Below the pieces are notes generated by a model. That model worked only from the letters and a program-made list of their open reading frames with translations, did no database searches and was not told where the DNA came from. This document shows, piece after piece, positions 385-18,329 of a stretch of DNA of 18,489 bases. Within the stretch, counting starts at the first letter, position 1; every line of letters begins with the position of its first letter. This DNA is from Promethearchaeota archaeon (lineage in GTDB: Archaea > Asgardarchaeota > Lokiarchaeia > Sigyniarchaeales > SOKP01), in NCBI GenBank assembly GCA_048940925.1, contig JBHLOC010000063.1, positions 1-18,489 of the forward strand. The letters are read 5' to 3'. Made by a program: the position numbers and the translations under genes.

Positions 385-2223
385 ATGTTGAAAAAAATAC
401 GAGCACCATTAATTTTCCTAATTGTTCTGATATTTTTGTCCTTTCTTCCGAGTATGTCAAATTTTAATTATATGGAAAACGATGATACCCAACAACCAAC
501 ATATTCAGCTAGTTTAGAAGGAGCGGAAAATATCGTGATAACTAAACTATTTAGAGCAGCAAATCTAAGTGGTTATGGTTTCGTTTCTTTTGAAGATTCA
601 TTAACGATTAAAAATTTCAATGACAATCCTATTACTTCAATTATGGTTGGAATTCCTTTAGCTGATGCAGAAGAATTAGTTTTTTTTAGAAGCGCTGGAG
701 ATGAAGGGAATACTTTATATACTGAACGCTCAAATATGGTAATAGATGATTATGAAATGTTTGCAATATACTTCGATTCTCCTTTATTACCTTACCAAAC
801 AAAATCTATTAAATTTCTGCACCAATATAAAAATCTCATTACTTATGTTCAAGCAGAAAAACAAATTCTATATTGCAACACTACTGTTTTTCCAATCTTG
901 CCATATAGAGCCGAAGGAGATATTAAAGCTTATTTTTATTTGCCAAAATATTCAGATGACATTAATGGTAGTTGGGGATTTGAACATGAACAACCACAAT
1001 ATTTTATACGATATGAATTAGTATTTATAGAATCGCAAATTGGAGACTTAATACTCACACCATATTTGGAAAATTTAAATAATTTAAAATATACAAATAT
1101 TAATTTTACTCATGGAACAGTCTCAAAGATGGAAATTACTGAAATTAATAGAGAAATTTACATCTCACCCTGGGGGATTGTCAGGGTTAAAGAAGATTTT
1201 ACAATCGAAAATTTAGGAATTCTTTCTTATACAAATATTACACTTAGCATACCCGCTCGAGCTAAAGATGTAGCAGTATCAGATGACCTAGGAGAAATGG
1301 ATATAATTATCAGTTCTCCTAATGATAAAGGATTGAAAGAATTATTAATCAATTTCATAACAAATCGTATCCAATTAATACCTCATACCTCTTATAGGTT
1401 TAGTATTAAATATTATCTCCCTTTTGATAAATACTATTCTACAAACTGGTTTCAAGGATCAATACAACTTGATATTTTAACCACTAAATCTGAATTTCTT
1501 GGAAGAAATCAAATTGTAAAAATTGTCATAGATGGTTGTAATAAAATTAACCATATTACTGAACCTCCAGAAATTATAAAAAAATCACATGGTACCGTTA
1601 TATTGACTTATGAATCAGATTTCGTAACCCCTTTTGAAAGTAATGTAATTCAATTTGCTTTTACAATTGATTTATTTGACTTACTCTTTAGACCTATAAT
1701 TTTTATGATAATAATTGCTTCTATTGCCTCAATTTATGTGTTAACTGTTAAAACAAGAAAAAAGGAACGTGATATGAATGTTTTAAAGAGAGAATTTATA
1801 CCGGTTAATGAAATACGTGAATTTTGTTCCTTGTATGAAGAAAAAAATGCTTTAACATTAGAAATTCGACAAGCAGAAGAAAACGCAAGAAGAAAGAAAA
1901 TAGCTAAAAAGAATTACAAAAATATTTTAGACAAAAATACGTTAAAAATAGATCAAATACTACAAGAAATATATCCTTTTAAAAAGGTTCTACTAGAAAC
2001 TAATATTACTTTTGAAAACGTGATAAAAAGGTTAGATCTTCTAGAAGCAGAGCGAATAAGTGTTAAAGATAGTTTAAATCTTTTAGAGTCTCGATATAAA
2101 AGAGGTAGATTGCCCTCTAGAGCGGCTTATCAAAAATTATCTGATGATTTTAAGAAAAGGAGAAGAAAAATTGAGAGAAATATTGATAAATTAATTCAAC
2201 AATTAAGAAGTTACCTCCTATAA
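385..2223 (+). CDS. rpn1: Ribophorin I / OST1-like oligosaccharyltransferase subunit, 612 aa
   Basis: N-terminal signal peptide and two tandem beta-rich lumenal-type domains (LSGYGFVSFEDSLTIKN and ISPWGIVRVKEDFTIENLG, cf. RPN1 vShWGni.veE.y.l.N.G; AKDVAVSDDLG, cf. A.dvyy.D.iG). Single TM at ~438-455 after RP, then a ~157-aa basic helical cytosolic tail. Confidence 0.82.
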   Translation: MLKKIRAPLIFLIVLIFLSFLPSMSNFNYMENDDTQQPTYSASLEGAENIVITKLFRAANLSGYGFVSFEDSLTIKNFNDNPITSIMVGIPLADAEELVFFRSAGDEGNTLYTERSNMVIDDYEMFAIYFDSPLLPYQTKSIKFLHQYKNLITYVQAEKQILYCNTTVFPILPYRAEGDIKAYFYLPKYSDDINGSWGFEHEQPQYFIRYELVFIESQIGDLILTPYLENLNNLKYTNINFTHGTVSKMEITEINREIYISPWGIVRVKEDFTIENLGILSYTNITLSIPARAKDVAVSDDLGEMDIIISSPNDKGLKELLINFITNRIQLIPHTSYRFSIKYYLPFDKYYSTNWFQGSIQLDILTTKSEFLGRNQIVKIVIDGCNKINHITEPPEIIKKSHGTVILTYESDFVTPFESNVIQFAFTIDLFDLLFRPIIFMIIIASIASIYVLTVKTRKKERDMNVLKREFIPVNEIREFCSLYEEKNALTLEIRQAEENARRKKIAKKNYKNILDKNTLKIDQILQEIYPFKKVLLETNITFENVIKRLDLLEAERISVKDSLNLLESRYKRGRLPSRAAYQKLSDDFKKRRRKIERNIDKLIQQLRSYLL

Positions 2224-2247
2224 AATATCTTTATTGTGTAAAAATTC

Positions 2248-2871
2248 ATGAAACCATGGTTATTTGATATATTAGCATGCCCCATTGATAAATCTTTTCC
2301 ATTAAAATTATTTATTTTCTCTTTTGAAACAAAACCTGAAGAGTTTCAAGCATTTATTGATATATATGAAAAAAGAGATATATCCTCTATAAAAGAACGA
2401 AACGTAATTGAAGTATCGGAAGAAAATAACTTACTTTTCATAAAAGATAACATTACTATAGAAAAAACTCCTATAAAATCTTATCTGGGATTAATTATCT
2501 CAAGTATTAATGAACTAGATAATATTTACGATAGAACTAAAGATGCTCATAGTATAAAATGTTTTAACATGATAAAAACAGGAATTAAACAAAAAATTGT
2601 TGAATTTCTTGATAAAAACGATGTTATTAATATCGAAAATATCTTTCCTGAATTATATTTTTTAAATAAAGTAAAAGTGGAAACAGAAATTGAATCAGGG
2701 TTATTATTTTGTAATGAATGCAATCGTTGGTATCCAATAATAGATACAATACCACAAATGCTCCCAGATCAATTTAGAGATAGGAAAAAAGAAATTGAAT
2801 TCCTAAAAATCAATAAAAATTTATTAGATGAAGAATTTTTTAATCAAAACCTTAAACCATTTAATTTATAA
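2248..2871 (+). CDS. trm112: Trm112 family methyltransferase activator, long form, 207 aa
   Basis: N-terminal LFDILACPIDK.FPL and C-terminal EIESGLLFCNECNRWYPIIDTIPQMLPD are the two halves of the Trm112 zinc-knuckle motif, separated by a ~120-aa insertion. Confidence 0.9.
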   Translation: MKPWLFDILACPIDKSFPLKLFIFSFETKPEEFQAFIDIYEKRDISSIKERNVIEVSEENNLLFIKDNITIEKTPIKSYLGLIISSINELDNIYDRTKDAHSIKCFNMIKTGIKQKIVEFLDKNDVINIENIFPELYFLNKVKVETEIESGLLFCNECNRWYPIIDTIPQMLPDQFRDRKKEIEFLKINKNLLDEEFFNQNLKPFNL

Positions 2872-2876
2872 AAAAG

Positions 2877-2978
2877 AGCCCGGTGGTGTAGTGGCCAAGC
2901 ATTTGGGGCCTTGAACCCCGCGACCACGGTTCGAATATTAACAAGTATGCTTGTTAATTGAAATTCCGTGCCGGGCTA
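2877..2978 (+). tRNA. trnQ: tRNA-Gln(TTG) with a 29-nt intron (2936-2964) at position 59/60; CCA not encoded
   Basis: Acceptor stem AGCCCGG (2877-2883)/CCGGGCT (2971-2977) with the A1-U72 pair typical of archaeal tRNA-Gln. D arm GTGT-AGTGGCCAA-GCAT; anticodon arm TGGGG-CC TTG AA-CCCCG (anticodon 2911-2913); T stem CACGG/CCGTG. T loop TTCGAA|T is restored on removing the intron; discriminator A2978; spliced length 73 nt. Confidence 0.93.
2936..2964 (+). other. Archaeal tRNA intron with a bulge-helix-bulge (BHB) splice motif
   Basis: Central helix TTCG (2930-2933)/TGAA (2959-2962); 3-nt bulges AAT (2934-2936) and ATT (2963-2965). Flanked by the T stem and a perfect 9-bp intron stem ATTAACAAG (2937-2945)/CTTGTTAAT (2950-2958) with a TATG loop. 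Confidence 0.9.
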
Positions 2979-2980
2979 TC

Positions 2981-2990
2981 TTTATATAAA
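2981..2990 (+). promoter_or_regulatory. Candidate TATA box upstream of the GPT gene
   Basis: TTTATATAAA just after the tRNA, 62 nt before ATG 3053; identical to the box at 329-338. Confidence 0.3.
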
Positions 2991-3052
2991 GAAAAGGGGA
3001 AATTTTCAATATATAATACTAGTTTATCTAAATAGAAATAGTCTAAAATGAT

Positions 3053-4423
3053 ATGTCTCATCTTACAGAGTTAAATTGGAGTTTTTTAGAAATATTCTTT
3101 CTTATCATAATTTTCTTAGTTGGATTTTTTGTAACTTTTAAAATTCTTCCGTCTATAATAAAATTTATGATCAAGAAAGATTATATAGGTTATGACATAC
3201 ATAAAAACGCTCGACCCAAGGTAGCCGAATCTGGTGGAGTTGCCTTGGTAATAGGTTTTACATTTGCCTCAATTTTCCTAATGCTGTTTTTTCCAGACAT
3301 AATAAATAAGACCTTGATTTTTCTTTTAACTGTCATTAGTGCGGGTATAATTGGATTTATTGATGATAGAAAAAAACTAAAATCACGATATAAAATTACA
3401 CTTTCAATTTTTTGTGGTAGTGCAATTTTTCTTGCGAATTTTTTTGGTATTATAACAATTTCTTCACCTACAATTCCTTTTCTTGATAAAACCAGATTAA
3501 ACTTTATTTATCCGCTCATTATACCTGTAATTGTAGCTGTTTTCGCAAATAGTGTAAATATGCTGGAAGGATATAATGGGGAAGGTTCCGGAACTTGTTT
3601 AATAGTTGTTATTTTTCTGTTCATATGCGGATTAGTATGGAATTCTGCTGAAACTGTGGTTTTTACTATTCCTGTAATTGCAGTAATAATCCCTTTCTTT
3701 ATTTATAATAAATATCCCGCAAGAATATTCCCCGGAGATGTAGGAACTCTAAGTATGGGGGCAATGATTGCCTGTATTATGTTTTTTGGATCACTTGAGG
3801 TTGCTACATTCTGTGCTCTTCTAACTCATATATTTAATAGTTTTTATGTAATAAATTCAGTTCGCGGTTTCTTTGAAAGCAGTGATATTCATGAAAATAA
3901 AAGTGATATTATATTACTAGAAGATGATCGAATCCAAGCATCAGATAAAAGAGATGCTGCCCTAACATTACCTCGATTAATACTGGCAAAAGGGCCTTTA
4001 ACAGAACCAGAATTAGTAAAAAATTTTTATGCTCTTTCAGTAATTTGTGGTTTTTTTTCTATTACCTCTATTATCTTCTTACAGGTTTCCGTAGGAAACT
4101 ATGAACTTATTGTCTTTTTAGTTTCAATTAGTATAATTGTTATCCCTGTTAGTTTTTTATTATATAAGTTCCCTAGAATCAGGGGAATTACAATACAGAT
4201 GATCATTTTACTATTGTTTATAACATGCTTTTTGGTTATTATTGAAAGTTTTATTATGCCTTTGCCATTTGAAGATATTGGGTTTGGTATAATAAAGATC
4301 CCCGTTAATCTCTTAATTTCTTTTCTTTTAGTTGTTCCAGGATTAATTATTTGGTATTTATTTGCTATTAAATATTTTTGGTCAGTAATCAACAAAATGA
4401 AAATTAAAAATGATATAAATTAA
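3053..4423 (+). CDS. aglH: UDP-GlcNAc:dolichyl-phosphate GlcNAc-1-phosphate transferase (GPT/DPAGT1/Alg7/AglH; Glycos_transf_4 family), 456 aa
   Basis: Polytopic membrane protein with GYDIHK, VAESGG, GFIDD, NSVNMLEGYNG, YNKYPARIFPGDVGT and LTLPRLIL.KGPLTEPELV. These match the archaeal/eukaryotic GPT branch rather than MraY/WecA. It has a ~110-aa C-terminal extension. Confidence 0.88.
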   Translation: MSHLTELNWSFLEIFFLIIIFLVGFFVTFKILPSIIKFMIKKDYIGYDIHKNARPKVAESGGVALVIGFTFASIFLMLFFPDIINKTLIFLLTVISAGIIGFIDDRKKLKSRYKITLSIFCGSAIFLANFFGIITISSPTIPFLDKTRLNFIYPLIIPVIVAVFANSVNMLEGYNGEGSGTCLIVVIFLFICGLVWNSAETVVFTIPVIAVIIPFFIYNKYPARIFPGDVGTLSMGAMIACIMFFGSLEVATFCALLTHIFNSFYVINSVRGFFESSDIHENKSDIILLEDDRIQASDKRDAALTLPRLILAKGPLTEPELVKNFYALSVICGFFSITSIIFLQVSVGNYELIVFLVSISIIVIPVSFLLYKFPRIRGITIQMIILLLFITCFLVIIESFIMPLPFEDIGFGIIKIPVNLLISFLLVVPGLIIWYLFAIKYFWSVINKMKIKNDIN

Positions 4424-4519
4424 AAATAATTGAGATTCAATATATTTTCAAAGAAATCTAAAAATCAAATTCATTTCAGTTTATTAAGAAAAAAAATTTG
4501 AAAAAGTGAGGTGTAACGG

Positions 4520-7069
4520 TTGAAAAAAATTCTCAGAACCTTATTTTTCATAATATATCTTCTTGCATCAATAGGACTATTTATCACATTGAATTCTACA
4601 TTCTTCCACTTTGAATGGTTAGAACTTATATTTGATTGGAGTTTTTTAATAACTGTTTTCCTGTATTTATTAACAATAGAAGAGTTTTATCACTGGGTTC
4701 GCAATAATAAAAGAAGTGAAATGAGTGATCTTGTCGCAATAGCTTTTTTCTTTTTCCTTATTTTTTTCTTTTCTAAGGACTTCCTAACGTCATTAATGGG
4801 GGCGTTCTCAATTTATCTATGGATTGGAATTTTTGAATTAAAAGAGTATCCAGTATTAAATAAAATTTTAATTATCTCATTGGTTACTTATAATATTATA
4901 TTTATTGCCGGTATCCTTTCTTTCTATCAGGAAAGTCCTTTTTTTATTAATACTGCTTTTGCATTTTCTTTCTGGATAATACTAATTATGGGATTTTTAT
5001 TATTTGGGAGAAAATATATAATTGTGTGGAGGTTTATGAGCCCGGAATATTTAACACTCTTTTTATATATAATAGCTTGGCTAGCAGTCGTGTTTATTGA
5101 TCAATATACCGCTCTTAGCTTCATTAATAATAAACCCTTAATAACCAATCATTTTACCATTCTTGATTTGTTTATGAACATATATTTTATCCTAATTTGT
5201 ATGAATTGGTTAATATATTTCGTATCTGGAGTAATATTAGACAAAATGCTTGGAATCAAGAGAATAACAGAAAATATTATGCTAGAAAAAGTAGAAAAAG
5301 TGAAAAACGATCTTGGGATAAAAGGTAAAGTAAAAGTTGGTTATGGAAAGTATCCAATTTTGAATGCAATGGCTTATGGTTCTTTTTTTGATAAAAGAAT
5401 TGCAATAATAGCTGAGGATATAAATCAAATTCCTAATGATGAGTTGAATGGTATTTTAGCCCATGAACTGGCACATACAAAAGGAAAACACACCTTAATT
5501 CTAACTTGCATCGCTTCTGGGGATCTAATTTTTAGGATGTTTTTAGGTTTACCAGCTACATTATACGATTATACTTTCGGTAAACCTCAGATTCCAATGA
5601 TTATTTTTATTTTTTTAAATTTAGCATTATATATACTCCTTTTTATATTTGTAAGAATTTTAGAAGGAAAAGCAGATTTAAAAGCCAAAAAAGCAGGATA
5701 TGCAAATGAACTTGCGAAAGCACTTTATAATTTAGAAAGCTTTTATGCCACTGGACGAGAAATTGGATTTAATACTATGCTTCTATGTGATGAGAAAATT
5801 ACAAATGATAATCAATTATTAGATTACATGAATACAGCTATTTATCTAAATCGGTCAATTATTAAACCATCACGAATTTCTCTCTTAGGGAATTTCATTA
5901 ATTCACATCCTCCGAGCTATTTAAGAATTGCTACTATTTTGGGGGATGAATTAAAACCAAGTAAAGAAGCTATTCTTCCTTTTATTTGTTTAAAAAAATC
6001 AAAACAACAGAAATACGCCAGAAAGTTCGAATCTGCACGGCAAAAATTTAAAACTATAGCAAATAGCAAATTCAAGGAGACTTTTGGAATAAAAAATATT
6101 CCTTTTCTAATGGAAAAATTGAGAAGAAAAGAATTATATAAGTTTGATCTAAATAAAGATTACATTTTTAGAAATAAGATTACTGATGAGATTAGAATAG
6201 GGAAATTAAATGATATTCAATTTCTTGATGATATTAGCGAAAGTGAACAATTTACTATAACTAATCTAAAAACTAATAAAAATGAATTGTTAAATTCATC
6301 ATTATATAATCACATTCAAATCGATCTGAATGAAAAATATTTCTTTGCGAAGAATTCTCCATTAACTTTAATAGATATTGACTTGAATAAGAAGAATCCT
6401 AAAGAGAGCTCTTTAATCTTTTTAGATGAGGAAAAAAATAAGCTTTTAAAACCAATTTTAAAAACTAAGCTCCCAAATTCACTAGCTTTCATTAAAAATT
6501 TGAAAGAACAAGAGATTTTTTTCAAAAAAAAGGGAAAATTGAAAATCTCTAAATGTATAGATGTTATAGATGCAGAAGATATCAGAAATTATAAATTAAT
6601 TCTAACTAATTTTGAAACTAAAGAAAACCATGAACCAGAGCATTTAAAATATGCAATAAATGAACTGATTATTAAACCAAAAAGGATAGTTTTTGCTATA
6701 CGTAGAGATAGAAAGTTTCGAGAATCTGAAGTTCAAATAATAAAATGGTTGATAAATAGGAAGCTTCTTTCTTATATTTATCTAAAAAAACCAGTAAATA
6801 ATCTAGAAATTGGCTTTATCCAGAAAATAAATCTAAACTTACCTAATTTTGAAAAATATTTAAAAAAAGACGAAAAAAATGAAGATGAAACACTACTTAT
6901 TAGTAATATCTTTGGAAAAGAAATAAAAATCCCTTACAATAAAATAGAATTAATTATATTTGACTATACCAGTGCTATGATTCAAATTAAATCAGAAACG
7001 AGCTTTACAAGTCGCTTAAGTTATAAGATATTAAAGAAATTTAAACCAGAAAGAATCTTAATAACTTAA
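4520..7069 (+). CDS. M48-family (HtpX/Ste24-like) membrane zinc metalloprotease with expanded N-terminal TM region and large C-terminal soluble domain, 849 aa
   Basis: LNAMAYG, DELNGILAHELAH (HExxH at residues 315-319, nt 5462-5476), LEGKAD and SHPP..LRI motifs; about 8 hydrophobic segments before the catalytic core. TTG start preceded by GAGGTG (4508-4513). Confidence 0.85.
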   Translation: MKKILRTLFFIIYLLASIGLFITLNSTFFHFEWLELIFDWSFLITVFLYLLTIEEFYHWVRNNKRSEMSDLVAIAFFFFLIFFFSKDFLTSLMGAFSIYLWIGIFELKEYPVLNKILIISLVTYNIIFIAGILSFYQESPFFINTAFAFSFWIILIMGFLLFGRKYIIVWRFMSPEYLTLFLYIIAWLAVVFIDQYTALSFINNKPLITNHFTILDLFMNIYFILICMNWLIYFVSGVILDKMLGIKRITENIMLEKVEKVKNDLGIKGKVKVGYGKYPILNAMAYGSFFDKRIAIIAEDINQIPNDELNGILAHELAHTKGKHTLILTCIASGDLIFRMFLGLPATLYDYTFGKPQIPMIIFIFLNLALYILLFIFVRILEGKADLKAKKAGYANELAKALYNLESFYATGREIGFNTMLLCDEKITNDNQLLDYMNTAIYLNRSIIKPSRISLLGNFINSHPPSYLRIATILGDELKPSKEAILPFICLKKSKQQKYARKFESARQKFKTIANSKFKETFGIKNIPFLMEKLRRKELYKFDLNKDYIFRNKITDEIRIGKLNDIQFLDDISESEQFTITNLKTNKNELLNSSLYNHIQIDLNEKYFFAKNSPLTLIDIDLNKKNPKESSLIFLDEEKNKLLKPILKTKLPNSLAFIKNLKEQEIFFKKKGKLKISKCIDVIDAEDIRNYKLILTNFETKENHEPEHLKYAINELIIKPKRIVFAIRRDRKFRESEVQIIKWLINRKLLSYIYLKKPVNNLEIGFIQKINLNLPNFEKYLKKDEKNEDETLLISNIFGKEIKIPYNKIELIIFDYTSAMIQIKSETSFTSRLSYKILKKFKPERILIT

Positions 7070-7107
7070 AAAAGTTTATTATAAATAAACCTTTCAAATG
7101 GTTATCA

Positions 7108-8055
7108 ATGTCAAATAAAATTAGGAATTTTTTAAACCTTCTACGTATCCGGCAATATTACAAAAACACAATGATCTTTGTGGGGATTTTTTTCAGTGAA
7201 AGACTCCTTGAAACAGATCTCTATTTTAAACTTTTAATAGGCTTTATTCTGTTATGTCTCTCGTCGTCCTTTAACTATATTATTAATGATATAAGAGACA
7301 TAGAAAATGATAGAAAACATCCAGAAAAAATTAAAAAGAAACCTCTAGCATCAGGAGACATCTCTATAACTTTCGCTTTATTATTATTAATTGTAATAGG
7401 AGGAATAGTTATTTCATCGTTAATTTTTCTGGTTCAAAATTTAGGTTTTGCATTTATGATAATTTCTATTATTATCACAGGTCAACTTTATAATCATCTT
7501 TTTAAATATTATGCTTTTATCGATATTCTTATTCTATCTACAGGATATTTATGGAGGGCTTTAGCAGGATGTGCAATAATAGAAGAATACGTTTCTGCTT
7601 GGTTGTTTTTAGCCATTTTTGAGGTAGCAATGTTTTTAAGTATCGCAAAAAGAAAAGGAGATCTGAATATTCTTGGAAAAGATGAAGCTGTTAGGCATAA
7701 AAAAATTTATGATCAATACTCTCTCAAGTTATTAGACCAATTTCATATAATCATTGCAGGATCATTATTTATGACGTATTCTCTATATCTTCTTATTAAT
7801 TTTAATCTTATCAATTTCAATTCAACCGAAACTACAAATGCTAATTTTCATGAATATATTTCAATTTTTACCATTCCAATTTCACTCTATATAATTATGC
7901 GTTATATGTACCTTACCTCTACAAAGCCAGAAATCGCTAGAAATACTGAAAAAGCCTTTATGGACAAAGGTATAATAATTGCTAGTGCTTTTCTATTTGT
8001 AATATTACTGTATTCATTTTATTTTGATGTAGTTCTTGACTTTTTTAAAAAATAA
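7108..8055 (+). CDS. ubiA: UbiA-superfamily prenyltransferase of the decaprenyl-phosphate phosphoribosyltransferase (DPPR synthase)-like subfamily, 315 aa
   Basis: LLRIRQYYKN, SSFNYIINDIRDIENDRKHPEK.KKKPLASG and the downstream KR.GDL motif are typical of the polyprenyl-phosphate:PRPP phosphoribosyltransferase subfamily; about 9 TM helices. Confidence 0.85.
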   Translation: MSNKIRNFLNLLRIRQYYKNTMIFVGIFFSERLLETDLYFKLLIGFILLCLSSSFNYIINDIRDIENDRKHPEKIKKKPLASGDISITFALLLLIVIGGIVISSLIFLVQNLGFAFMIISIIITGQLYNHLFKYYAFIDILILSTGYLWRALAGCAIIEEYVSAWLFLAIFEVAMFLSIAKRKGDLNILGKDEAVRHKKIYDQYSLKLLDQFHIIIAGSLFMTYSLYLLINFNLINFNSTETTNANFHEYISIFTIPISLYIIMRYMYLTSTKPEIARNTEKAFMDKGIIIASAFLFVILLYSFYFDVVLDFFKK

Positions 8056-8112
8056 TATATTAAATATATTTTTATATTTTTCATCAAAGAATATCTTTGA
8101 AAAATAGATAAT

Positions 8113-9312
8113 TTAATTAAAATGAGAATCCAGATATGATATTGCATCATAACATATTTCTAAACAATCATTTAAATTCTTATTGGAACATTTATCGGGT
8201 GTATCGCTCTTGGAGTGAATATATTTTGAATCTTTATCTGAATGAAAGCAAGCGATTTGAAACTTCTTTTTTGTTCTCCTTCTAAAAATACGAAAAGATT
8301 GGTAATCACTTTTTGGTCTGAAGATTTTGTCAAATCTATCTAATGGGATATCTAATTTATTCGCAGATGCTTGTAAAATATCATTTAATTCAGTACTTAT
8401 TGATTTTTTAAGTATTAATCCCGTTTTATCTAAAAGCCCAATATAACTACCAACCATATCTATATTAATATTAATTGATCTCTCTAGATTGTATTGTTCC
8501 TTAAAATCCTTATAGTGTTTCTTACAAAATTTTCTCGAACCTTTTAAACCCCACTCCTCTGCTCCACACCATATAAAAAAAACTTCAAAATTATTAAGGG
8601 GTTGGTTTTTGATAATTTTTGATAATTCTATTAAAATAGAAACACCACTTGCATTATCAATTGAACCAGCTGATTTATTAGAAGTGAAAATGAAAAGGAA
8701 AATTGGTATTAATACACTCAATGTAACAAGTGAAAGAATACTAATCAGATAGATTATAAAATTATTTAAGTAAGTAACTGAAAGTATGTTGAGAGTCAAC
8801 CAAATTGAGATGAATATTGATAATCCAATATATGGAAAAATTATTAATTTAATAATGACCAATAATATTCTCTGCACTTTATATGGCACCCTTGATGAAA
8901 CAGAATCATAGTGAGCGGTAAAAATAATTATAGGGGAACTAATTTTGTCTTTTTTAGCTGAAATTTTAGCTATTACATTCTTAGATTCTTCTTTCTTCAC
9001 TAATGAAATTCTACGTGTTTTTTGAAACATATATTTAATAAAAAAAAACAATACAATGATTAAAAATAGACGAAACACTAACAAATAGCCTATTGCCATT
9101 AAGTAGATAGTCTTCATTAACAGATTTATTGGAGTATTCCATGAAAAGTATTCTGCTCGAGATTCAATCTTACCTAAATTTAATTCCTCTTGTATATAAT
9201 TAATTGCTTTGGTTTCTCCTACACTTGCTGCTGAGCGATCAAATGCTAAAGCCTCCACATGGCTTAGTATATCTAATTCTTCTTTTAATTTTTGATTTGA
9301 AATAATTGTCAT
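8113..9312 (-). CDS. M28-family zinc peptidase with internal transmembrane segments, 399 aa
   Basis: AHYDS, GSIDNASG, GAEEWGLKGS, NIDMVG, SDYQSF and IHSKSDTPD make a full M28 metal-ligand set; hydrophobic inserts at ~63-96 and ~149-210. Confidence 0.88.
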   Translation of the reverse strand: MTIISNQKLKEELDILSHVEALAFDRSAASVGETKAINYIQEELNLGKIESRAEYFSWNTPINLLMKTIYLMAIGYLLVFRLFLIIVLFFFIKYMFQKTRRISLVKKEESKNVIAKISAKKDKISSPIIIFTAHYDSVSSRVPYKVQRILLVIIKLIIFPYIGLSIFISIWLTLNILSVTYLNNFIIYLISILSLVTLSVLIPIFLFIFTSNKSAGSIDNASGVSILIELSKIIKNQPLNNFEVFFIWCGAEEWGLKGSRKFCKKHYKDFKEQYNLERSININIDMVGSYIGLLDKTGLILKKSISTELNDILQASANKLDIPLDRFDKIFRPKSDYQSFRIFRRRTKKKFQIACFHSDKDSKYIHSKSDTPDKCSNKNLNDCLEICYDAISYLDSHFN

Positions 9313-9556
9313 ATTTCTTATAATTTTTTCCTTATTACTTTAATGAATAAATATTTTATTCAAACTTTAATCTTTTACTTATGATATTGAAATAAAGCTT
9401 TCATTGATCTCATATAGAATTCTTATTAAATTACGTTTTTTTACTCACTAGAATTATTACTCATCATGCTAATAAATTTTGTATTCGATATTTAATTTTC
9501 TTTCTTTTGTTCTTCTTTATCTTTATAATATTGTTTCACATCCGAAAAAAAAGGAT

Positions 9557-9573
9557 AAAACTTATAAAGTTTT
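9557..9573 (+). promoter_or_regulatory. Candidate dppA promoter TATA box within a palindrome
   Basis: AAAACTT-ATA-AAGTTTT inverted repeat containing CTTATAAA with a purine-rich upstream run, 72 nt before ATG 9646. Confidence 0.35.
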
Positions 9574-9645
9574 GAATTTAAAACAATACTTAACACTAAT
9601 TTTCATAAAAAAATCTTTCTAAAATATCATTTAAGTGATAAAAAT

Positions 9646-11340
9646 ATGGAAATGGAAAAGAAAAATTTAGCAATAATAATTTTAGCTGTAGCCTTAGCTG
9701 CATCTGGAATCGGAAATATATTATTTGCAGTACTTGGTGGTTTTATTGAAGTTACGGAGCCAGAAGAATTACCTACTACTCTCATTTTTGGTACCGGTAG
9801 CGGTCCTTTAGATGCTGATCCTCAATATTTATGGGATAGTGCCTCATTTGACTTTGCCTTTCAAATTTGGGAGGGCTTGTATATATATAACTTTACTGAT
9901 CCAAGTCTCGAAATAATTCCTGGTCTTGCAACTGATTTTGGTACGTGGGTAGGTAATAACCATACCGTAACTCTTAAGCAAGGTATTACATTTCATTCAG
10001 GTTATAGATTTAATGCCACATCCGTTAAATTTACATTTGATAGATTAAACTACTTATGTAATTTTTCAGGTGATCAGGGTGAAACCGATACCATATATGG
10101 TGAAACTGCTATTTCGGTGTTATATATGTGGCCTGATGGTACCCCTGTTCTGAATAGAACAGAAATTATTAGTGAATATCAAGTTAAATTTGTATTAAAC
10201 AGGCCATTTGGTGTATGGATACCATTATTGACCTTTACGGGCTCAATGATGCTCGATCCTACAGTAACTCCTGCGGATGATTATATATGTGATGGTATGT
10301 CAGGAGCAACTTCAGAAACCATCTCTGGAACCGGTCCGTTCAAATTCGATTACTATGTTGCTGGTGTTGAGGCACGATATAGTAGAAATGATGACTATCG
10401 ATTAGGTCCTGCAGAAATTGAAGCGGTAGTATTTTCTGTTATTACAGATCCAGATGCTAGAAATACTGCTATGTTAAATGGGGATGTGCATCTGTTGGAT
10501 GCGCCTGCTCCTGGATACTATGATCTCTTTCGGGCTGAAAGTAAATTGACATTCTTCGAGGCGGGTAGTAATACAATTACCCAATATCTAGGAATGAATA
10601 ATGTACTTTACAACAACTGGACGAGATATGCAATTTCTTATGCGGTTGACTATGATTATTTCATAACTAACATAATGGAAGGAGAAGCTTCAAGATTAAA
10701 ATCACCAATTCCTAATGGTATTGCGTATGCAAATGATTCATTTGATGCTCCTACCTTTAATCTTACGAAAGCAAGGGAGTATATGGTAGCTCAGGGTTAT
10801 GGAGACATGGGCTGGACCGATACCCAATGGCGACAATCTAGCTTCATAACGATGAACTATACCTATAATACGGATAATCCAGTTCGAGTAGCTTTCTCAG
10901 ATCAAATAATAGATAACTTAGATCGGATCGGAATTGTTGTAGAAGATAACCCCTTAGAATGGGGTGATTATAAAGTATATCTTTACGGTCTCGGAGTAGC
11001 TGGATATATGAGGTTATCCTTATGGTTTATCGGATGGATGCCTGATTATAATGATCCAAGTAATTTCGTTAATTCATTAATGTCGAACGTTTCATCTTCA
11101 AACACTGCCCAAATCAATGATCATTTATTAGAAACTTATATGGAAATGGGTTTATCAGAGACTGACCCGGTTGCAAGAGAGAAAATTTACGATGACCTAC
11201 AAAAATACACTGTTGAAGTCTTACGACCTTGGGTTTATATGTATACTGCATTAAACAAAGATGTATGGGTAGATGCATTACATGGCTATCCAAGCAATCC
11301 TATGGGCTACAACTACTTCTATCCGTGCTATTTTGAATAG
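9646..11340 (+). CDS. dppA: Peptide/nickel ABC transporter substrate-binding protein (SBP family 5, DppA/OppA-like), 564 aa
   Basis: N-terminal hydrophobic anchor; DP..lwD..S......IWEGLY, PGLATD, LKQGITFHSG.RFNA.SVKFTFDR, GTGPFKF, RYAISYAVD and GWMPDYNDPSNF. Confidence 0.92.
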   Translation: MEMEKKNLAIIILAVALAASGIGNILFAVLGGFIEVTEPEELPTTLIFGTGSGPLDADPQYLWDSASFDFAFQIWEGLYIYNFTDPSLEIIPGLATDFGTWVGNNHTVTLKQGITFHSGYRFNATSVKFTFDRLNYLCNFSGDQGETDTIYGETAISVLYMWPDGTPVLNRTEIISEYQVKFVLNRPFGVWIPLLTFTGSMMLDPTVTPADDYICDGMSGATSETISGTGPFKFDYYVAGVEARYSRNDDYRLGPAEIEAVVFSVITDPDARNTAMLNGDVHLLDAPAPGYYDLFRAESKLTFFEAGSNTITQYLGMNNVLYNNWTRYAISYAVDYDYFITNIMEGEASRLKSPIPNGIAYANDSFDAPTFNLTKAREYMVAQGYGDMGWTDTQWRQSSFITMNYTYNTDNPVRVAFSDQIIDNLDRIGIVVEDNPLEWGDYKVYLYGLGVAGYMRLSLWFIGWMPDYNDPSNFVNSLMSNVSSSNTAQINDHLLETYMEMGLSETDPVAREKIYDDLQKYTVEVLRPWVYMYTALNKDVWVDALHGYPSNPMGYNYFYPCYFE

Positions 11341-11374
11341 GGAAACGCAACACTTAAGAAAATCAAAAATTTAA

Positions 11375-11386
11375 TTTTTTTTTTTT
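11375..11386 (+). terminator. Oligo-T archaeal intrinsic terminator candidate after dppA
   Basis: T12 run 34 nt after the dppA stop, followed by further T-rich sequence. Confidence 0.55.
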
Positions 11387-11661
11387 AATTTATTTTTCAT
11401 TATTTATATCTTAATATCTTAAATATCATTCCAAAACTATCTTCCTAGAAATCTAATTTATATCTAACTCCGAATATTTCAACTTATGAAACACTATTCT
11501 GACAGAATCAAAAAAATATAGAATAATTAATAAAGAACCGATCATTGATGCACCTAATTTTAAAAACCTATCTACAGTTTTCTACGTACAGTAATTGGTC
11601 TTAAACTTTCTAATACCATATAAGTTATAAAAGAAAATGCAATTATAAGAGGAGATTATCA

Positions 11662-12231
11662 ATGTCAGTGATCGGTTATAGCGCAATTATGTTCGGTGTA
11701 ATATTCATTATTTTAGGTCTGGCAACAGTACTATATTATATTGCTATTTGGTTTAAAGCTAATGAGAATTTTAAAATAAACTTTGCAAGACAAGGAAATT
11801 TCATTGTGGCAATCTTAATGCTTCATTTTCTTTTTTATGGATTTATTGCTAACGAATTTGGGAAAGATATTGGGGAAGATATATTGTTTACATATAAAAT
11901 CCTATTTAGTCCGCAATCTTGGTTCTCCCTTTTTATCCTGATTGCAATTATCTTCTTTGTAGTATTAAGAGAACATTTTTTTGAGTATGGAATTAGGAAC
12001 AGTATAATGCTTACTCCTATTATAATAGGAATGTCATGGTTCTGGTATTGGTTTATTGTGGAATTTGATGTCACTATCATTCCACTATATTTTATTAGAG
12101 CTGAAGCTTATTTAACAATTATTACCATTTTAGGTATTAACTTTGCTTCAGCCATTCTTGCCTCTATTTTAAAACAAATATATAAAGAATATATTAAAAC
12201 TACTAAAGGATTAATTATTATAGAAGAATAA
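11662..12231 (+). CDS. Uncharacterised integral membrane protein (~5 TM), 189 aa, inside the dpp locus
   Basis: Open frame with GAGGAG SD (11649-11654), about five hydrophobic helices, same strand and 32 nt before the probable dppB ATG; no motif recognised. Confidence 0.75.
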   Translation: MSVIGYSAIMFGVIFIILGLATVLYYIAIWFKANENFKINFARQGNFIVAILMLHFLFYGFIANEFGKDIGEDILFTYKILFSPQSWFSLFILIAIIFFVVLREHFFEYGIRNSIMLTPIIIGMSWFWYWFIVEFDVTIIPLYFIRAEAYLTIITILGINFASAILASILKQIYKEYIKTTKGLIIIEE

Positions 12232-12263
12232 TATAAAATTAAAAAAATGACTAGGTGAAGTAT

Positions 12264-13280
12264 ATGAGTGTAATTAAATTTGTATTTAGGAGGTTTTTAG
12301 CTCTAATACCTGTTTTATTTGGAGTATTGCTACTTACTTTTATACTATCAAGATCAATGCCAGGAGATCCTATATTAGCTCATATTCCTCAACAATACAC
12401 TCGGGAACAGTATTTAGATATGAAACATCGACTTGGATTCGATAAACCCTTATGGGAACAATTTTTTATTTATATCGGAAATTTATTTTCAGGAAATTGG
12501 GGTGTTTCTGTGTCAATTAATAAAGGTCAAGAAGTCTGGGATCTTACTTGGGAACGATTTCCTAGGACAATAGATATCACCATATTTGCTATGATAATTG
12601 CCGCTTTTATCGGAATTAAAACAGGAGTTATTTCAGCCACTCATAGAAATAAAGGAAGAGATACAATTTTAAGAGGTTTGGCTCTTGTTGGGGTATCGAT
12701 ACCAGTTTTCTGGTTAGGTTTAATTCTACAATTGACGTTAGCTTACAGATTGGGTCTATTTCCAGCTGTTGGGTTCAAAAAATTAAGTTATACTGATCCT
12801 GAATTTGTGACTGGCTTTAGGATAATTGATTCCCTAATATCGGGGGAATGGTACTTTATTTGGGATTACTTATACCATCTTGCATTGCCAGTATTGTGTT
12901 TATCTTTTATCACTCTCGCATCAATTACTAGACAAACCCGTTCTAGTATGTTAGAAGTTCTACAGCAGGATTATGTGAGAACTGCTAGAGCAAAAGGATG
13001 CAGAGAGAAAGATGTTATAAATAAGCATGCTAAAAGAAATGCTTTGATCCCTACAGTTACTGTCATAGGTCTGAATATTGGTGGTTTATTAGGGGGAGCA
13101 ATTTTAACCGAAACAACCTTTTCCTTACACGGGTTGGGCGAATTGTTGATGCGAGCAATTTTGGATAACGATTATTATGTAATCAACGCAATCGTATTTT
13201 TAACAACTCTTATATTCATTTTTGTCAATCTATTTACAGATCTAATATATGCCTATTTAGATCCACGTATAAAATATTAA
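12264..13280 (+). CDS. dppB: Peptide ABC transporter permease DppB/OppB
   Basis: MPGDP, GFDKPLWEQF, SIPVFWLGL, TRSSMLEVLQQDYVRTARAKG (EAA loop), LYAYLDP-type end IYAYLDPRIKY. The track GTG at 12255 lies within an AGGTGA SD (12253-12258), so ATG 12264 is preferred. Confidence 0.95.
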   Translation: MSVIKFVFRRFLALIPVLFGVLLLTFILSRSMPGDPILAHIPQQYTREQYLDMKHRLGFDKPLWEQFFIYIGNLFSGNWGVSVSINKGQEVWDLTWERFPRTIDITIFAMIIAAFIGIKTGVISATHRNKGRDTILRGLALVGVSIPVFWLGLILQLTLAYRLGLFPAVGFKKLSYTDPEFVTGFRIIDSLISGEWYFIWDYLYHLALPVLCLSFITLASITRQTRSSMLEVLQQDYVRTARAKGCREKDVINKHAKRNALIPTVTVIGLNIGGLLGGAILTETTFSLHGLGELLMRAILDNDYYVINAIVFLTTLIFIFVNLFTDLIYAYLDPRIKY

Positions 13281-13314
13281 AAAAGTCTAAATAATATAAA
13301 AAAAGGAAGAGAAA

Positions 13315-14316
13315 ATGGAAGAAGTATATGAAGAACAGGAGTTAATTGAGGAGAGAAAAAAAGAGAGTCCAGCTAGGAAAGTTCTCTCATGGACAGGCTC
13401 TAATCTGAAATTTCTTTTTTTGCCTGGTTATAGATTAGAAGAACTTACAAATCGACAAGAAATTTATGAAAAAACTGTAAGTAAAAGAAAATTTATACGA
13501 AGACTAAAATCAACCCTTACAATAATTGGTATAATCCTCATTTTTGTAGTTATCAGTTTTGCAGTCTTCGCTCCATGGATATCTCCCTATACCTTTCTGG
13601 AAGCTAAAGGTATTTATGAACCTTGGTTTGCTCCTGCTTCTCCGGGACATCCCTTAGGAACAACACAATTTGGAAGAGATGTATTAGCAAGAATGATATG
13701 GGGGGCGAGATCATCTTTAACCCTCGCGTTGCCAGCCATTACATTGAGTGTAGTCGCAGGTACGTTTTTTGGTATTATTGCTGCTTATTATGGTGGATGG
13801 ATTGATGCAGTCATTATGAGAATTGCTGATATTCTTTTTGCATTTCCGGGATTAATACTTGCAATCGTTATAATAGGAATATTAGGTCGACAAATGCAAT
13901 TCATAATTTTAGCATATGGAATACTTGGAATTCCTTATTATGCAAGGTTAATTAGAGGAAATGTACTACAAGCTAGAGAGCTTCCCTATGTGGAAGCTGC
14001 CAAAGTTGCTGGAGCAGGAAGATGGAGAATAATGTTTAGACATATAATGCCAAATACTATTCAACCAATTATTATTTCGTTTACATTTGATATAGGTGGA
14101 GTTATTTTAAGTTTTGCAGGTTTAGCATTTTTAGGTTATAGCGATCCTAAAATGGTTGAATGGGGTAGAGATATCGATATTGGCCGTGCACATATAGTTG
14201 ATGCACCTTGGGCATCATTATGGCCTGGAATGATGATTGTTATAACCGTTTTGGGTTTTATGTTAGTAGGTGATGGACTTAGGGATGCATTAGATCCTAG
14301 ACTTCGAAACTTATAA
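13315..14316 (+). CDS. dppC: Peptide ABC transporter permease DppC/OppC, 333 aa
   Basis: HPLGTTQFGRDVLARMIWGARSSL, YVEAAKVAGA (EAA loop), GDGLRDALDPR; N-terminal charged extension. Confidence 0.95.
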   Translation: MEEVYEEQELIEERKKESPARKVLSWTGSNLKFLFLPGYRLEELTNRQEIYEKTVSKRKFIRRLKSTLTIIGIILIFVVISFAVFAPWISPYTFLEAKGIYEPWFAPASPGHPLGTTQFGRDVLARMIWGARSSLTLALPAITLSVVAGTFFGIIAAYYGGWIDAVIMRIADILFAFPGLILAIVIIGILGRQMQFIILAYGILGIPYYARLIRGNVLQARELPYVEAAKVAGAGRWRIMFRHIMPNTIQPIIISFTFDIGGVILSFAGLAFLGYSDPKMVEWGRDIDIGRAHIVDAPWASLWPGMMIVITVLGFMLVGDGLRDALDPRLRNL

Positions 14317-14347
14317 CAATTTTTGTACATTAAAAAAACTAAGTGAA

Positions 14348-15628
14348 ATGGGAAAAATAATGGGTATAACAGAAGACAAGTATAATATTCCTGATAAAAA
14401 TAATCAAATAATGACAGTGAAGGCTAAATCTTCAGAACTTATCCTTAAATTAGAAAATCTAAAAACATATTTCTATACAGAGGAAGGAGTCGTTAAAGCT
14501 GTTGATGGTGTTTCATTTGATATATATAAAGACGAAGTGCTAGGTCTTGTAGGTGAAACTGGCTGTGGTAAATCAGTTACAGCGCTTTCTATTGTACGTC
14601 TTGTAAGAGATCCCGGAAAAATCATCGATGGCAAAATTATTTATAAGGGAACTTCCCTTTTAGATTTATCTGAACAAGAAATGAGAGCGCATCGTGGTAA
14701 GGATATAACTATGATTTTTCAAGATCCACTAAATTCTCTTAATCCCGTAATTTCGGTTGGAGAACAGGTAATGGAAGTATTTAGATTGCACCAATTAGAT
14801 GAGGTTAAGAAAGATCTTGATGATCGCCTCCTTCAAAGAAGGAATCTGAGAAATAGAATAAAAGAACTAAAGATCCTTCTTAAAGAAAATGAACTATCAA
14901 AGGAAGAAAAAGAAAAAATTGAGCAAGAAATAATAGAACTAAAAGAAGAAACGCGACACATACCGATTCTGAAAGATATTCTTTCAGAAAGAGCTGAAAG
15001 AATTATAAAAGAAATAGGAATTCCGGATGCAAAAGGAATCCTAAAAAGATATCCTCATGAATTAAGCGGGGGTATGAGACAGCGTGTTATGATTGCAATG
15101 GGTTTATCATGCAATCCTTCACTTTTAATAGCTGATGAGCCTACCACTGCGTTAGATGTTACAATTCAAGCTCAAATTCTTGATTTAATGAAAGACTTAA
15201 AATTAAGATTTAAAACATCAATTCTTATAATTACACATGATTTAGGAATAATTGCTGAATTGTGTGATAGAATTGCTGTTATGTATAGTGGAAATATTGT
15301 AGAATATGCAACAGCCGAAGATTTATTTAAAAATCCAAGACATCCATATACAAAAGGATTAATAGGTGCGATTCCAAGCATAGAAAAGAAAAATCAAAAG
15401 CTCCAAACTATTCGAGGTATGGTACCGAATCTCATTTATCCGCCATCAGGATGTAGATTCCATCCTCGATGTGATTATAGAATGGAAATCTGTGATAAAG
15501 TAAAACCTCAATTGACAGAAATAGCTGATAGATATTTTGTAGCCTGCCATCTTTTTGATCCAAGATATAAAGATTCACCTAAATATATTCTATCTGAAAA
15601 AGAAGATGAGGTTTTATATAAAGTATAA
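14348..15628 (+). CDS. dppD: Peptide ABC transporter ATP-binding protein DppD/OppD with coiled-coil insertion, 426 aa (start may be 14360)
   Basis: Walker A GETGCGKS, Q-loop IFQDP, signature LSGGMRQR, Walker B LLIADEPT, H-loop ITHD, C-terminal GCRFHPRC...C...C motif. Confidence 0.95.
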   Translation: MGKIMGITEDKYNIPDKNNQIMTVKAKSSELILKLENLKTYFYTEEGVVKAVDGVSFDIYKDEVLGLVGETGCGKSVTALSIVRLVRDPGKIIDGKIIYKGTSLLDLSEQEMRAHRGKDITMIFQDPLNSLNPVISVGEQVMEVFRLHQLDEVKKDLDDRLLQRRNLRNRIKELKILLKENELSKEEKEKIEQEIIELKEETRHIPILKDILSERAERIIKEIGIPDAKGILKRYPHELSGGMRQRVMIAMGLSCNPSLLIADEPTTALDVTIQAQILDLMKDLKLRFKTSILIITHDLGIIAELCDRIAVMYSGNIVEYATAEDLFKNPRHPYTKGLIGAIPSIEKKNQKLQTIRGMVPNLIYPPSGCRFHPRCDYRMEICDKVKPQLTEIADRYFVACHLFDPRYKDSPKYILSEKEDEVLYKV

Positions 15629-15656
15629 TTAAATAATTAAGAAAAACTTGATGTAA

Positions 15657-17066
15657 ATGACTACTCCAGAATTAAATACAAAAGAAACCGAATGGGCACA
15701 ACCTAAAGATATAAAGGAGAATAGAGAGATCATTATTCGAGTAGAAAACCTTAAGACATATTATCCAATAATAGGAGGTTTATTTAAACGTAAAATTGGA
15801 GAGGTTAAAGCCGTTGATGGGGTAACCTTCAATCTCTATAAAAATGAAACATTAGGTTTAGTAGGAGAGAGTGGATGTGGAAAAACCACAATTGGAAATA
15901 CTATTCTCAATCTAGTTAATAATACAGAGGGGCAGATATTTTATAAGGATAGAAGAATTGATTCAAAGAGATTCCAAGGGCTATGGGAACGAATAGCTCA
16001 AAGATTCAGAAATCTTTTTCTCCTGGCTTTACCAATCGTTTATATGAAAATTAAAGGAAAAATCGATAAATGGAGAAGTATAATCCCATCTGCTAAAAAC
16101 TTTAAATTTTTGGTTGGTTTAATTTTTGTTTTTCTAGCAAGTTTTGGGTTAACATTTATTGCAGGTCATTATGAAGTAATAGCAGCTATTTTTGCGGGTT
16201 TAGGTCTTTTTGCTATTATTACTTTAATATATACAACCTTATCGATTAAAATTTCTTATGTCGAAGCAAAATCTATTGCTAAACAAATCCAAAAAGATTT
16301 ATTGGTTGATAAGTTTATACGAAAAAAAATTCAGATGGTGTTTCAAGATCCTGATGCTTCATTGAATCCACGTTGGAAAATTGTAAATATTATTGGTGAA
16401 CCACTTAGAATTTTAGAAGGTATAACTAAAAAGAGAAGAATAAGGAAAAGAGTGTTTGAACTTCTAGAAACAGTTTCAATGAAGCAAGAGCATTTGGATC
16501 GATATCCTCACGAATTTTCTGGAGGTCAGAAACAAAGAATTGTAATTGCAAGGGCATTAGCAAGTAATCCTGAAGTAATTATTTTGGATGAACCCACATC
16601 CGCTTTAGATGTATCGGTACAAGCTCAAATTCTAAACTTATTGAGAGAACTCCAGAATGAATTTGATTTATCTTATATGTTTATTACCCATGATCTTAGT
16701 GTTGTTCAGCATATCGCTGATAGGATCGCTGTAATGTATCTGGGAAAGTTTGTTGAAACCGGTACAGTTGATGAAGTGTTTTATAATCCCACACATCCTT
16801 ATTCGAGGGCCCTGTTATCAGCAAGACCTACGTTCGATCCAACATCAAAAACAAATAGAATTATCTTAGAAGGAGATGTTCCTAGCCCAATAAATCCCCC
16901 TGAAGGGTGTCCTTTTCACCCTAGATGTCAAGAAAAAGGTGATCATATAGGATGCGGTATAGAAGAACCTAGAAAAATTCATTTAGGTGGAGATCATTAT
17001 ATCATGTGCCTTCCTTTTAAAGATGAGAAAAAATCTTATGAAGGGATGAAATTTATTTCAGATTAA
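15657..17066 (+). CDS. dppF: Peptide ABC transporter ATP-binding protein DppF/OppF with an internal transmembrane-hairpin insertion, 469 aa
   Basis: Walker A GESGCGKT, VFQDP, FSGGQKQR, IILDEPT, ITHD and GCPFHPRC...C...C; ~110-aa hydrophobic insertion between Walker A and the Q-loop. Confidence 0.93.
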   Translation: MTTPELNTKETEWAQPKDIKENREIIIRVENLKTYYPIIGGLFKRKIGEVKAVDGVTFNLYKNETLGLVGESGCGKTTIGNTILNLVNNTEGQIFYKDRRIDSKRFQGLWERIAQRFRNLFLLALPIVYMKIKGKIDKWRSIIPSAKNFKFLVGLIFVFLASFGLTFIAGHYEVIAAIFAGLGLFAIITLIYTTLSIKISYVEAKSIAKQIQKDLLVDKFIRKKIQMVFQDPDASLNPRWKIVNIIGEPLRILEGITKKRRIRKRVFELLETVSMKQEHLDRYPHEFSGGQKQRIVIARALASNPEVIILDEPTSALDVSVQAQILNLLRELQNEFDLSYMFITHDLSVVQHIADRIAVMYLGKFVETGTVDEVFYNPTHPYSRALLSARPTFDPTSKTNRIILEGDVPSPINPPEGCPFHPRCQEKGDHIGCGIEEPRKIHLGGDHYIMCLPFKDEKKSYEGMKFISD

Positions 17067-17092
17067 TTTTTTTTCTTTTTTATTTATTTTTT
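17067..17092 (+). terminator. Oligo-T terminator candidate at the end of the dpp operon
   Basis: TTTTTTTTCTTTTTTATTTATTTTTT directly after the dppF stop codon. Confidence 0.55.
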
Positions 17093-17156
17093 CAACAGGT
17101 AATTATATTTTCTAATATTACATCATTAAAGATTGATTAAAACTAATTAATTCTTC

Positions 17157-18329
17157 ATGATGCCAAAAAACTCTCAAGTCTATGTGATTAAAACATCCTC
17201 TAACTCTATTTTAGAAGATTATCAGAATCTAATGCACCTTACCGGATACCAAAAAATCTTTGATATAAATAGTAAGATAATTTTAAAATTAAATTTAAGT
17301 TGGTCTAAATTCTTCCCCGCTTGCTCTAGCCCTCCATGGCAAGTTGAAGGTATACTTAAAGCAATGATTAAAGATGGTTTTGATCCAAAAAAAATTTTTA
17401 CTGCTGAAAATCGAACAGTAGTAACTAATATAGAGAAAGGATTAAAGGGGAACAAGTGGACACCAATTATAAAGAAATATGGTGTTAAGTTCGTACCCCT
17501 AACTCGTATTCCATTTGTTTCATATGAATCTTTAAGATCTAATTTTATAGCCCTTAAAAATAAAAAACTTCATGCTTTAGATTCTAAAATATTTCCTGAT
17601 GGATTTAAAATTCCCAAATTTTATATTGGAAAACCCATAATTCATCTTCCTACAATGAAGACACATGGTCATACAGGTGCTGTAGGTGGTTCATTAAGGA
17701 AAACCTCCGAAGAAATGAAACACGGCGGTATAACTTGTGCTATGAAAAATGCTTTTGGGGGATTGTTAACAAAGAGAAGACATTTTTCACATCAATATAT
17801 GTCTGAGGTTTTAGTAGATCTCTTAATCATCCAGAAGCAAATACATCCTCAAATTCTCTCAGTAGTTGATGGAACAGTATGCGGTGATGGAGCAGGACCA
17901 AGAACAATGATTCCTCGTATAAAAAATTATTTACTTGCAGGCTATGATCAAGTTGCTGTTGATACCGTAGTCGCTCGAATGTTTGGTTTTAAACCATTAG
18001 AACTACCTGCTATAAAATTGGCCCATGATGAAGGTCTTGGGTGTGGAGATTTTGATCAGATTGAGATTATTGGGGAGGATGTATCAAATATTAATTGGAA
18101 TTTTAAAGTGAAACGCAGTCTAGTAATATGGGGGGATCAAATGGTAAGAAAAGGACAATTACATTTTCTTTATCCATTATTCCGTAGCGAACTCTTCTTC
18201 TTAATTCCAACTTATGCATCTATGATCTATCATGATATGTTGTGGTATCCTTTAATTGGTAGGAAAAGAATTAAGATATTTTACAAAACTGAATGGGGTA
18301 AAATGTTCAAGGCATATCCAGTTAAATAA
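17157..18329 (+). CDS. DUF362-domain protein, 390 aa
   Basis: IILKLNL, LPTMKTHGHT, TCAMKNAFGG, VVDGTVCGDGAGP and AGYDQVAVDTV follow the DUF362 pattern (K.N ... P.lKtH ... T.amKN.fG ... D.....G.GP ... D.vA.D). Confidence 0.85.
   Translation: MMPKNSQVYVIKTSSNSILEDYQNLMHLTGYQKIFDINSKIILKLNLSWSKFFPACSSPPWQVEGILKAMIKDGFDPKKIFTAENRTVVTNIEKGLKGNKWTPIIKKYGVKFVPLTRIPFVSYESLRSNFIALKNKKLHALDSKIFPDGFKIPKFYIGKPIIHLPTMKTHGHTGAVGGSLRKTSEEMKHGGITCAMKNAFGGLLTKRRHFSHQYMSEVLVDLLIIQKQIHPQILSVVDGTVCGDGAGPRTMIPRIKNYLLAGYDQVAVDTVVARMFGFKPLELPAIKLAHDEGLGCGDFDQIEIIGEDVSNINWNFKVKRSLVIWGDQMVRKGQLHFLYPLFRSELFFLIPTYASMIYHDMLWYPLIGRKRIKIFYKTEWGKMFKAYPVK

Follow-up and report, generated by a model that had tools for sequence, protein, structure and literature searches.

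ATPases of type I importers are regarded as soluble modules. The window analysed here, a contig taken in full (18,489 nt) and placed in Promethearchaeota by the names of its homologues, codes for a DppF-type ATPase with two hydrophobic helices inside its nucleotide-binding domain (NBD), which raises the question of what such helices do in this protein and how they came there. A conserved predicted transmembrane (TM) hairpin within the RecA-like subdomain departs from the soluble-module view. We consider it rather probable that the DppF hairpin anchors the protein in the membrane as an optional part that can be exchanged, at a site facing the membrane where insertions recur.

The DppF ATPase and its insert

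Gene dppF (positions 15657-17066, forward strand like all features below unless stated) encodes a 469-aa ABC ATPase of the DppF/OppF type in one uninterrupted frame. The protein matches the Pfam families ABC_tran (107.7 bits) and oligo_HPY (PF08352; 61.1 bits, cut-off 27.1). Walker A (G70-T77; 15864-15887), the Q-loop strand with Q230 (16329-16346), the ABC signature (residues 287-291; 16515-16529), Walker B with the catalytic E312 (residues 308-312; 16578-16592), the D-loop and H345 of the H-switch are invariant in 61 homologues, in agreement with the preliminary description, where the catalytic motifs were considered intact. Equally invariant is a carboxyl-terminal motif of four cysteines (C418/C424/C433/C451; 16908-17009) resembling the four carboxyl-terminal cysteines that hold a [4Fe-4S] cluster in E. 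coli DppF (PMC12136057). Motifs, oligo_HPY domain, cysteines and operon are those of DppF/OppF proteins of the PepT family, and DppF is most simply read as a working ATPase in a peptide-type importer of five subunits, with putative ATP-driven peptide import. It falls short of the curated NCBIfam thresholds for DppF/OppF (372 against 408 bits for NF008453, 349 against 660 for NF043071 and 357 against 540 for NF011659); the insert splits the match. It also departs from the definition of a soluble peripheral subunit devoid of TM segments by two segments predicted to span the membrane.

The insert covers residues 103-213 (15963-16295), and the position and size of about 110 extra in-frame residues given previously are borne out. 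In an alignment made via the orthologue P0032 (offset of 50 after the insert), residues 83 and 94 of E. coli DppF (8z1v_D) fall at about 98 and 218 of the window protein, so that 10 residues in E. coli correspond to 119 here, a net gain of about 109. The spacer between Walker A and the Q-loop strand is accordingly 148 residues long, versus 36-37 in Loki orthologues without insert. AlphaFold2 predicts four helices in the insert (109-142, 146-171, 174-196 and 201-215), with a pLDDT of about 52-63 versus mostly 75-92 in the NBD core. The first (15981-16082) is basic and amphipathic, as had been noticed before; the highest hydrophobic moment of the whole protein, 0.70, lies at residues 102-121. 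The two following helices contain the predicted TM segments F151-A169 (16107-16163) and V174-L195 (16176-16241), joined by the four-residue turn GHYE (170-173; 16164-16175), which would face outward. A basic return helix (16257-16301) then runs into the helix preceding the Q-loop strand.

Hydrophobicity was scored on the Kyte-Doolittle scale in a 19-residue window (KD19). The two segments, already described as hydrophobic helices of about 20 residues, reach 2.52 and 2.53, within the range of the TM helices of DppB and DppC of the window (1.65-3.0), versus a maximum of 1.68 and a mean of 1.10 in 73 DppF cores. Lysine and arginine exceed acidic residues on both flanks of the hairpin, where the preliminary description had noticed lysines.

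Conservation of the hairpin and provenance of the contig

Homologues that keep the insert, which the preliminary description had proposed to search for, exist: an in-frame homologous hairpin is present in 19 distinct sequences from JGI, ENA, Logan, NCBI and GTDB. The gene order SBP-X-B-C-D-F-DUF362 is common to the hairpin loci lying on sufficiently long contigs. Such independent occurrence argues against an assembly chimera, the danger pointed out at the outset. An origin of the insert as a chimera or frame artefact could be suspected since the window is a whole contig whose gene block (385-18329) recurs in the same order and with 58-80% protein identity in its own assembly (G000:C63:85476-87873 and G000:C3:34-14435), which has 8.42% contamination; given the same hairpin in records of JGI, ENA, Logan and NCBI and in six other species genomes, we regard its probability as negligible. 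The recurrence of the block together with the contamination indicates that the window contig probably derives from a second, co-binned Loki species. The hairpin-less DppF encoded on C3 would then be the syntenic orthologue of the window protein.

Distribution of insert types and cassette exchange

The hairpin is a minority state. Of the 71 orthologous loci compared, which come from a chosen subset of 70 genomes that is if anything enriched for long frames, 14 have no insert, 14 a basic loop, 18 an amphipathic insert with a spacer of 98 residues (98-type) and 13 an amphipathic 118-type insert. The window-type hairpin occurs in 7 of the 71 and other TM types in 5, which makes 12 of 71 with any hairpin. 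The first amphipathic helix of the window insert has its homologue in the first half of the TM-less 98-type insert, and the 50-residue hairpin is nested within the latter.

When a tree is built from the core without the insert, six changes are needed to account for the hairpin type and its bearers are united in no bootstrap tree, a single clade being rejected by the AU test; the tree of DppB plus DppC requires at least three changes. Exchange of the insert is seen in pairs of alleles. P0038, which lacks the hairpin, and P0006, which has it, are 98-100% identical in DNA outside approximately codons 110-222, and identity stays at about 99% for 593 nt on the upstream side and 700 nt on the downstream side, versus 49-71% within the insert. 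The same hairpin-less allele is found in another sample (P0045), where the core is 99.6% identical to that of the hairpin-bearing P0008. These alignments show that the whole cassette was replaced, with junctions close to codons 110 and 222 in these relatives, rather than the hairpin simply deleted; the route was presumably homologous recombination in the conserved flanks. P0011 suggests transfer in the other direction: its core is 91% identical to that of the hairpin-less G004, yet in the amphipathic segment it shares 73-74% identity with hairpin-type alleles and 53% with G004. This sequence is known from one contig with a coverage of 4.9, and single metagenomic contigs of this kind could be chimeric.

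Since most orthologues do without the hairpin, any benefit it confers must be small or conditional. The hairpin can be dispensed with and is probably a simple anchor.

Origin of the inserted helices

The site has received other membrane helices. In G012 and P0024 two further helices lie within the turn of the hairpin and match P1B copper ATPases (E 1e-20, about 60%). The G012 piece (L021:10534-10744) consists of 211 nt coding for two TM helices with 86% identity to the copA-type gene of the same genome, an in-frame copA capture inside the hairpin. The G097 insert (L066:2276-3004) carries a 255-nt copy of the dppD coil of its own operon (91% identity) behind unrelated hydrophobic helices. In G015 (L072:2236-2676), pyrimidine-rich low-complexity DNA codes for a hydrophobic stretch rich in Ser, Leu and Phe, its reverse strand reading as Glu/Arg/Lys repeats; this TM segment possibly arose de novo. 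Yet another TM insert type is found in G019, G101 and G106. By spacer length, the TM gains at the site other than the window type comprise the types 171/181, 177-180 and 267.

No donor of the window hairpin was found among gene X, DppC, the operon, the genome or the representatives searched by profile. Profile comparison with hhalign gave probabilities of 1.8% for gene X and 0.3% for DppC, the insert having no profile similarity to the latter. An antisense or inverted-repeat origin was likewise discarded for the window, where there is neither an open reverse frame nor a repeat or donor in operon or genome; this idea suits only the Ser/Leu/Phe-rich G015 type. The insert has no Pfam match above cut-off, a profile search against 1.84 billion representatives yielded a DppF fragment and nothing else, and the Atlas gave no usable match.

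DppF has been connected to the membrane by a different route in paralogous operons. A second dpp operon of the window assembly (L018:5720-10332, G000:C74) codes for a DppD with about 11 and a DppF with about 6 amino-terminal TM helices next to intact DppB and DppC. These amino-terminal parts give no convincing Pfam match. Between 1 and 10 such helices are predicted in 16 of the 20 DppF paralogues fetched, mostly picked for long frames. The captures, copA included, and these paralogues imply that membrane tethering of DppF recurs by several routes in the lineage.

Selection on the insert

The pooled pN/pS of the hairpin cassette is 0.88, which does not differ significantly from 1 (Fisher P 0.37), whereas that of the core is 0.12. 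For the 98-type insert it is 0.37, obtained from more saturated pairs, these estimates being based on four hairpin and seven 98-type pairs that are partly non-independent. Positive selection was considered and dropped, dN/dS exceeding 1 only in single pairs with tiny counts. Within this loose sequence one property is strictly kept: no charged residue is found at the 41 TM positions in 14 proteins, when simulated neutral change of equal extent puts 5-6 charges or stops into every divergent sequence (P 0.001-0.003 for each of the comparisons, which are not independent). Hydrophobicity maintained while the sequence varies freely is better explained by helices facing lipid than by a protein interface.

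The same numbers invite the alternative that the hairpin is a tolerated passenger, in which hydrophobic captures partition harmlessly into the membrane and selection merely purges charges that would cause misfolding, with no benefit for the cell. The near-neutral pN/pS, the absence of the hairpin from most loci and the opportunistic look of the captures (a copA fragment, a copied dppD coil, pyrimidine-rich DNA) agree with this. Difficult to reconcile with it are the spacer of exactly 148 residues across lineages whose cores differ by 12-20% in DNA, the apparent sideways spread of the cassette into other cores (P0011, G012) and the recurrence of DppF tethering by independent routes, with no TM insertion seen inside DppD. 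We find this alternative unlikely, though deserving of some weight.

Proposed role of the hairpin

The location of the insert can be judged from better known importers. Residue A73 of MalK, nine positions before the Q-loop glutamine, lies 3 Å from the coupling helix (PMC7658222); its equivalent in the window DppF is I221, a few residues past the end of the insert. The NBDs of importers are in close proximity to the membrane (PMC3971661). By analogy with this geometry, the insert should emerge from the NBD on the rim that faces the membrane. Coupling of DppC to DppF in E. coli (PMC12136057) would, by the same kind of analogy, place the hairpin beside DppC.

We propose that the loop before the Q-loop helix, on the membrane-facing rim of the NBD, tolerates insertions. 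The amphipathic helix would rest on the cytoplasmic (inner) leaflet, the two-helix hairpin would enter the bilayer and come back with both basic ends inside, and the basic return helix would lead into a normal coupling cleft. The hairpin would touch lipid and tether DppF beside the permeases, adding no pore and requiring no specific partner, and recombination in the conserved flanks would exchange the whole cassette with amphipathic-only versions in both directions. Actual insertion, topology, a lipid-facing role and any benefit, for example a steadier assembly with DppC, are deduced from the sequence. The self-anchored NBD of the preliminary description is supported, by inference, by hydrophobicity, basic flanks, the 19 homologues and the exclusion of charges.

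The helices might instead enter the membrane only to a shallow depth, re-entrant or in its plane, as a wedge that gates the ATPase by sensing or shaping the curvature of the membrane or the state of its lipids. The turn is indeed very short, the flanking helices are amphipathic and the commoner alleles are purely amphipathic. However, each helix of 19-26 residues is as hydrophobic as the TM helices of the permeases, and the turn accommodates a polar 16-residue loop in P0011 or the two CopA TM helices in G012, as expected of a hairpin that spans the bilayer, which makes a wedge highly improbable. The turn is also longer in P0037. A further reading takes the loop as a membrane module under selection: Loki archaea would maintain alleles with no insert, a basic loop, an amphipathic insert or 2 or 4 TM helices and exchange them by recombination, thereby altering how the membrane or the product of gene X holds or regulates the ATPase. 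We rate a selected module of this kind as doubtful. If such a module exists, these loci offer a living case of a soluble importer ATPase becoming an integral membrane protein through captured helices.

Comparison with known transporters

Foldseek aligns the window DppF to E. coli DppF with E 8e-28 and 36% identity. The E. coli DppF/OppF proteins (DppBCDF, OppBCDF; PepT family TC 3.A.1.5; PDB 8Z1V, 8Z21; PMC12136057) share with it the NBD fold, the catalytic motifs, the oligo_HPY domain with its four cysteines and an operon with DppA, B, C and D. The window system differs by the roughly 110 extra residues with the predicted hairpin, by gene X and by the DppD coiled coil. Among solved structures the best sequence matches are OppD/DppD of M. 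tuberculosis (PDB 8J5Q, 8WD9), members of the same ATPase subfamily that combine two NBDs in a single soluble polypeptide; the alignment is interrupted at the insert, for which they have no equivalent. Exporters like Sav1866 and MsbA also have an ATPase covalently joined to membrane helices (PMC3971661). In these fusions a full translocating TM domain is attached end-to-end, whereas the window DppF has two helices inside the RecA-like subdomain and its DppB and DppC are separate and intact, so that it is not a fusion of this type.

The closest comparison is with hairpin-less DppF proteins of Promethearchaeota (98-spacer, for example P0032, and the 36-42 type). They occupy the same operon and locus, with cores up to 99.6% identical, and the 98-spacer orthologues have homologous amphipathic helices without the 50-residue hairpin. 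In the paralogues exemplified by G000:C74 the importer ATPase is tethered too although permeases are present, by amino-terminal helices and with a normal spacer of 35-37 residues; no sequence similarity to the hairpin was found in G000.

The layout of a hairpin in an NBD was not found among solved structures, and titles and abstracts, mostly outside subscription journals, contained nothing relevant on importer-NBD inserts or Loki Opp/Dpp ATPases. What is new, going by the alleles compared, appears to be the dispensability of the hairpin, the exchange of cassettes between near-identical alleles and the traced copA capture. The allele series amounts to a natural controlled experiment, with 99% identical cores in which the hairpin is present or absent, and the loci document the gain of membrane helices, including a traceable capture from copA of the same genome.

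The other genes of the operon

The window operon holds a family 5 solute-binding protein (SBP), two BPD_transp_1 permeases and a second ATPase. The SBP gene dppA (9646-11340) and its syntenic counterpart on contig C3 share just 29% identity, versus 53-80% for the genes that flank it. At least nine family 5 SBP genes are present in the assembly. This suggests that the SBP is replaced frequently in the lineage.

Gene X (11662-12231) codes for a membrane protein that matches no known family and is found only in Promethearchaeota. The extra gene with five TM segments of the preliminary description has indeed five predicted here; 3-4 is usual in the family. Almost every orthologous operon contains it, whichever form of DppF is encoded, and it is a candidate sixth subunit regardless of the hairpin. 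Its model has a pLDDT of 89.6, the best fold match (Z 7.3) remaining within the background of helical bundles. The Atlas match is a Promethearchaeota cluster, and a claudin-like fold is absent among the matches listed. Downstream follow dppB (12255-13280; 6 predicted TM segments), dppC with an amino-terminal extension (13315-14316), dppD with a coiled-coil insert that has no TM segment (14348-15628) and, beyond dppF, the usual neighbour coding for a DUF362 protein (17157-18329). The DppC extension and the DppD coil are family-wide, the span of the coil being 111-115 in nearly all loci.

The hairpin, the coil, the extension and gene X had been taken together as the signs of an elaborated peptide transporter. 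The three accompanying features exist, but a link specific to the hairpin is mostly unsupported. They also accompany DppF proteins that lack the hairpin, among them the one encoded by the syntenic block of the window assembly, so that the four features are not one package, and the hairpin is found with at least three different DppB/C lineages. These observations weigh against the alternative of a larger translocator to whose structure the hairpin belongs, packed on DppC or the X protein and tuning coupling or recruiting X. In its favour are the coupling of DppC to DppF in E. coli, which would place the hairpin next to DppC, a few small or aromatic hairpin residues that are nearly invariant, and the 5-TM form of X with a single extra amino-terminal helix, which is found solely beside TM-bearing DppF (4 of 4 loci, only 2 independent pairs). 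This leaves a faint hint of a link between the extra helix and TM-bearing DppF; seven other TM-bearing loci have an ordinary X. The near-neutral change of the hairpin sequence also speaks against a fixed protein interface. A predicted complex of the insert with DppC and X gave an ipSAE of 0.00, the fold of the partner being uncertain, and counts for neither side. We hold a structural part of this kind to be decidedly unlikely, and retain the lipid-facing anchor.

ARAGORN found no tRNA gene in the window, and promoter and terminator scans of it stayed at chance level. In locus L092 (G148), DppB and DppC are apparently fused in one 598-aa frame. Upstream of the window operon, positions 385-8055 code for a 612-aa membrane protein without Pfam match, a Trm112 protein with a long insert, a glycosyltransferase of family 4, an 849-aa M48 protease and a UbiA enzyme. 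Between ubiA and dppA lies, on the minus strand, a gene for an M28 peptidase with three predicted TM segments (8113-9312). Most orthologous loci lack a gene there, and a reverse gene of 399 aa occupies the same position in G100 and G024.
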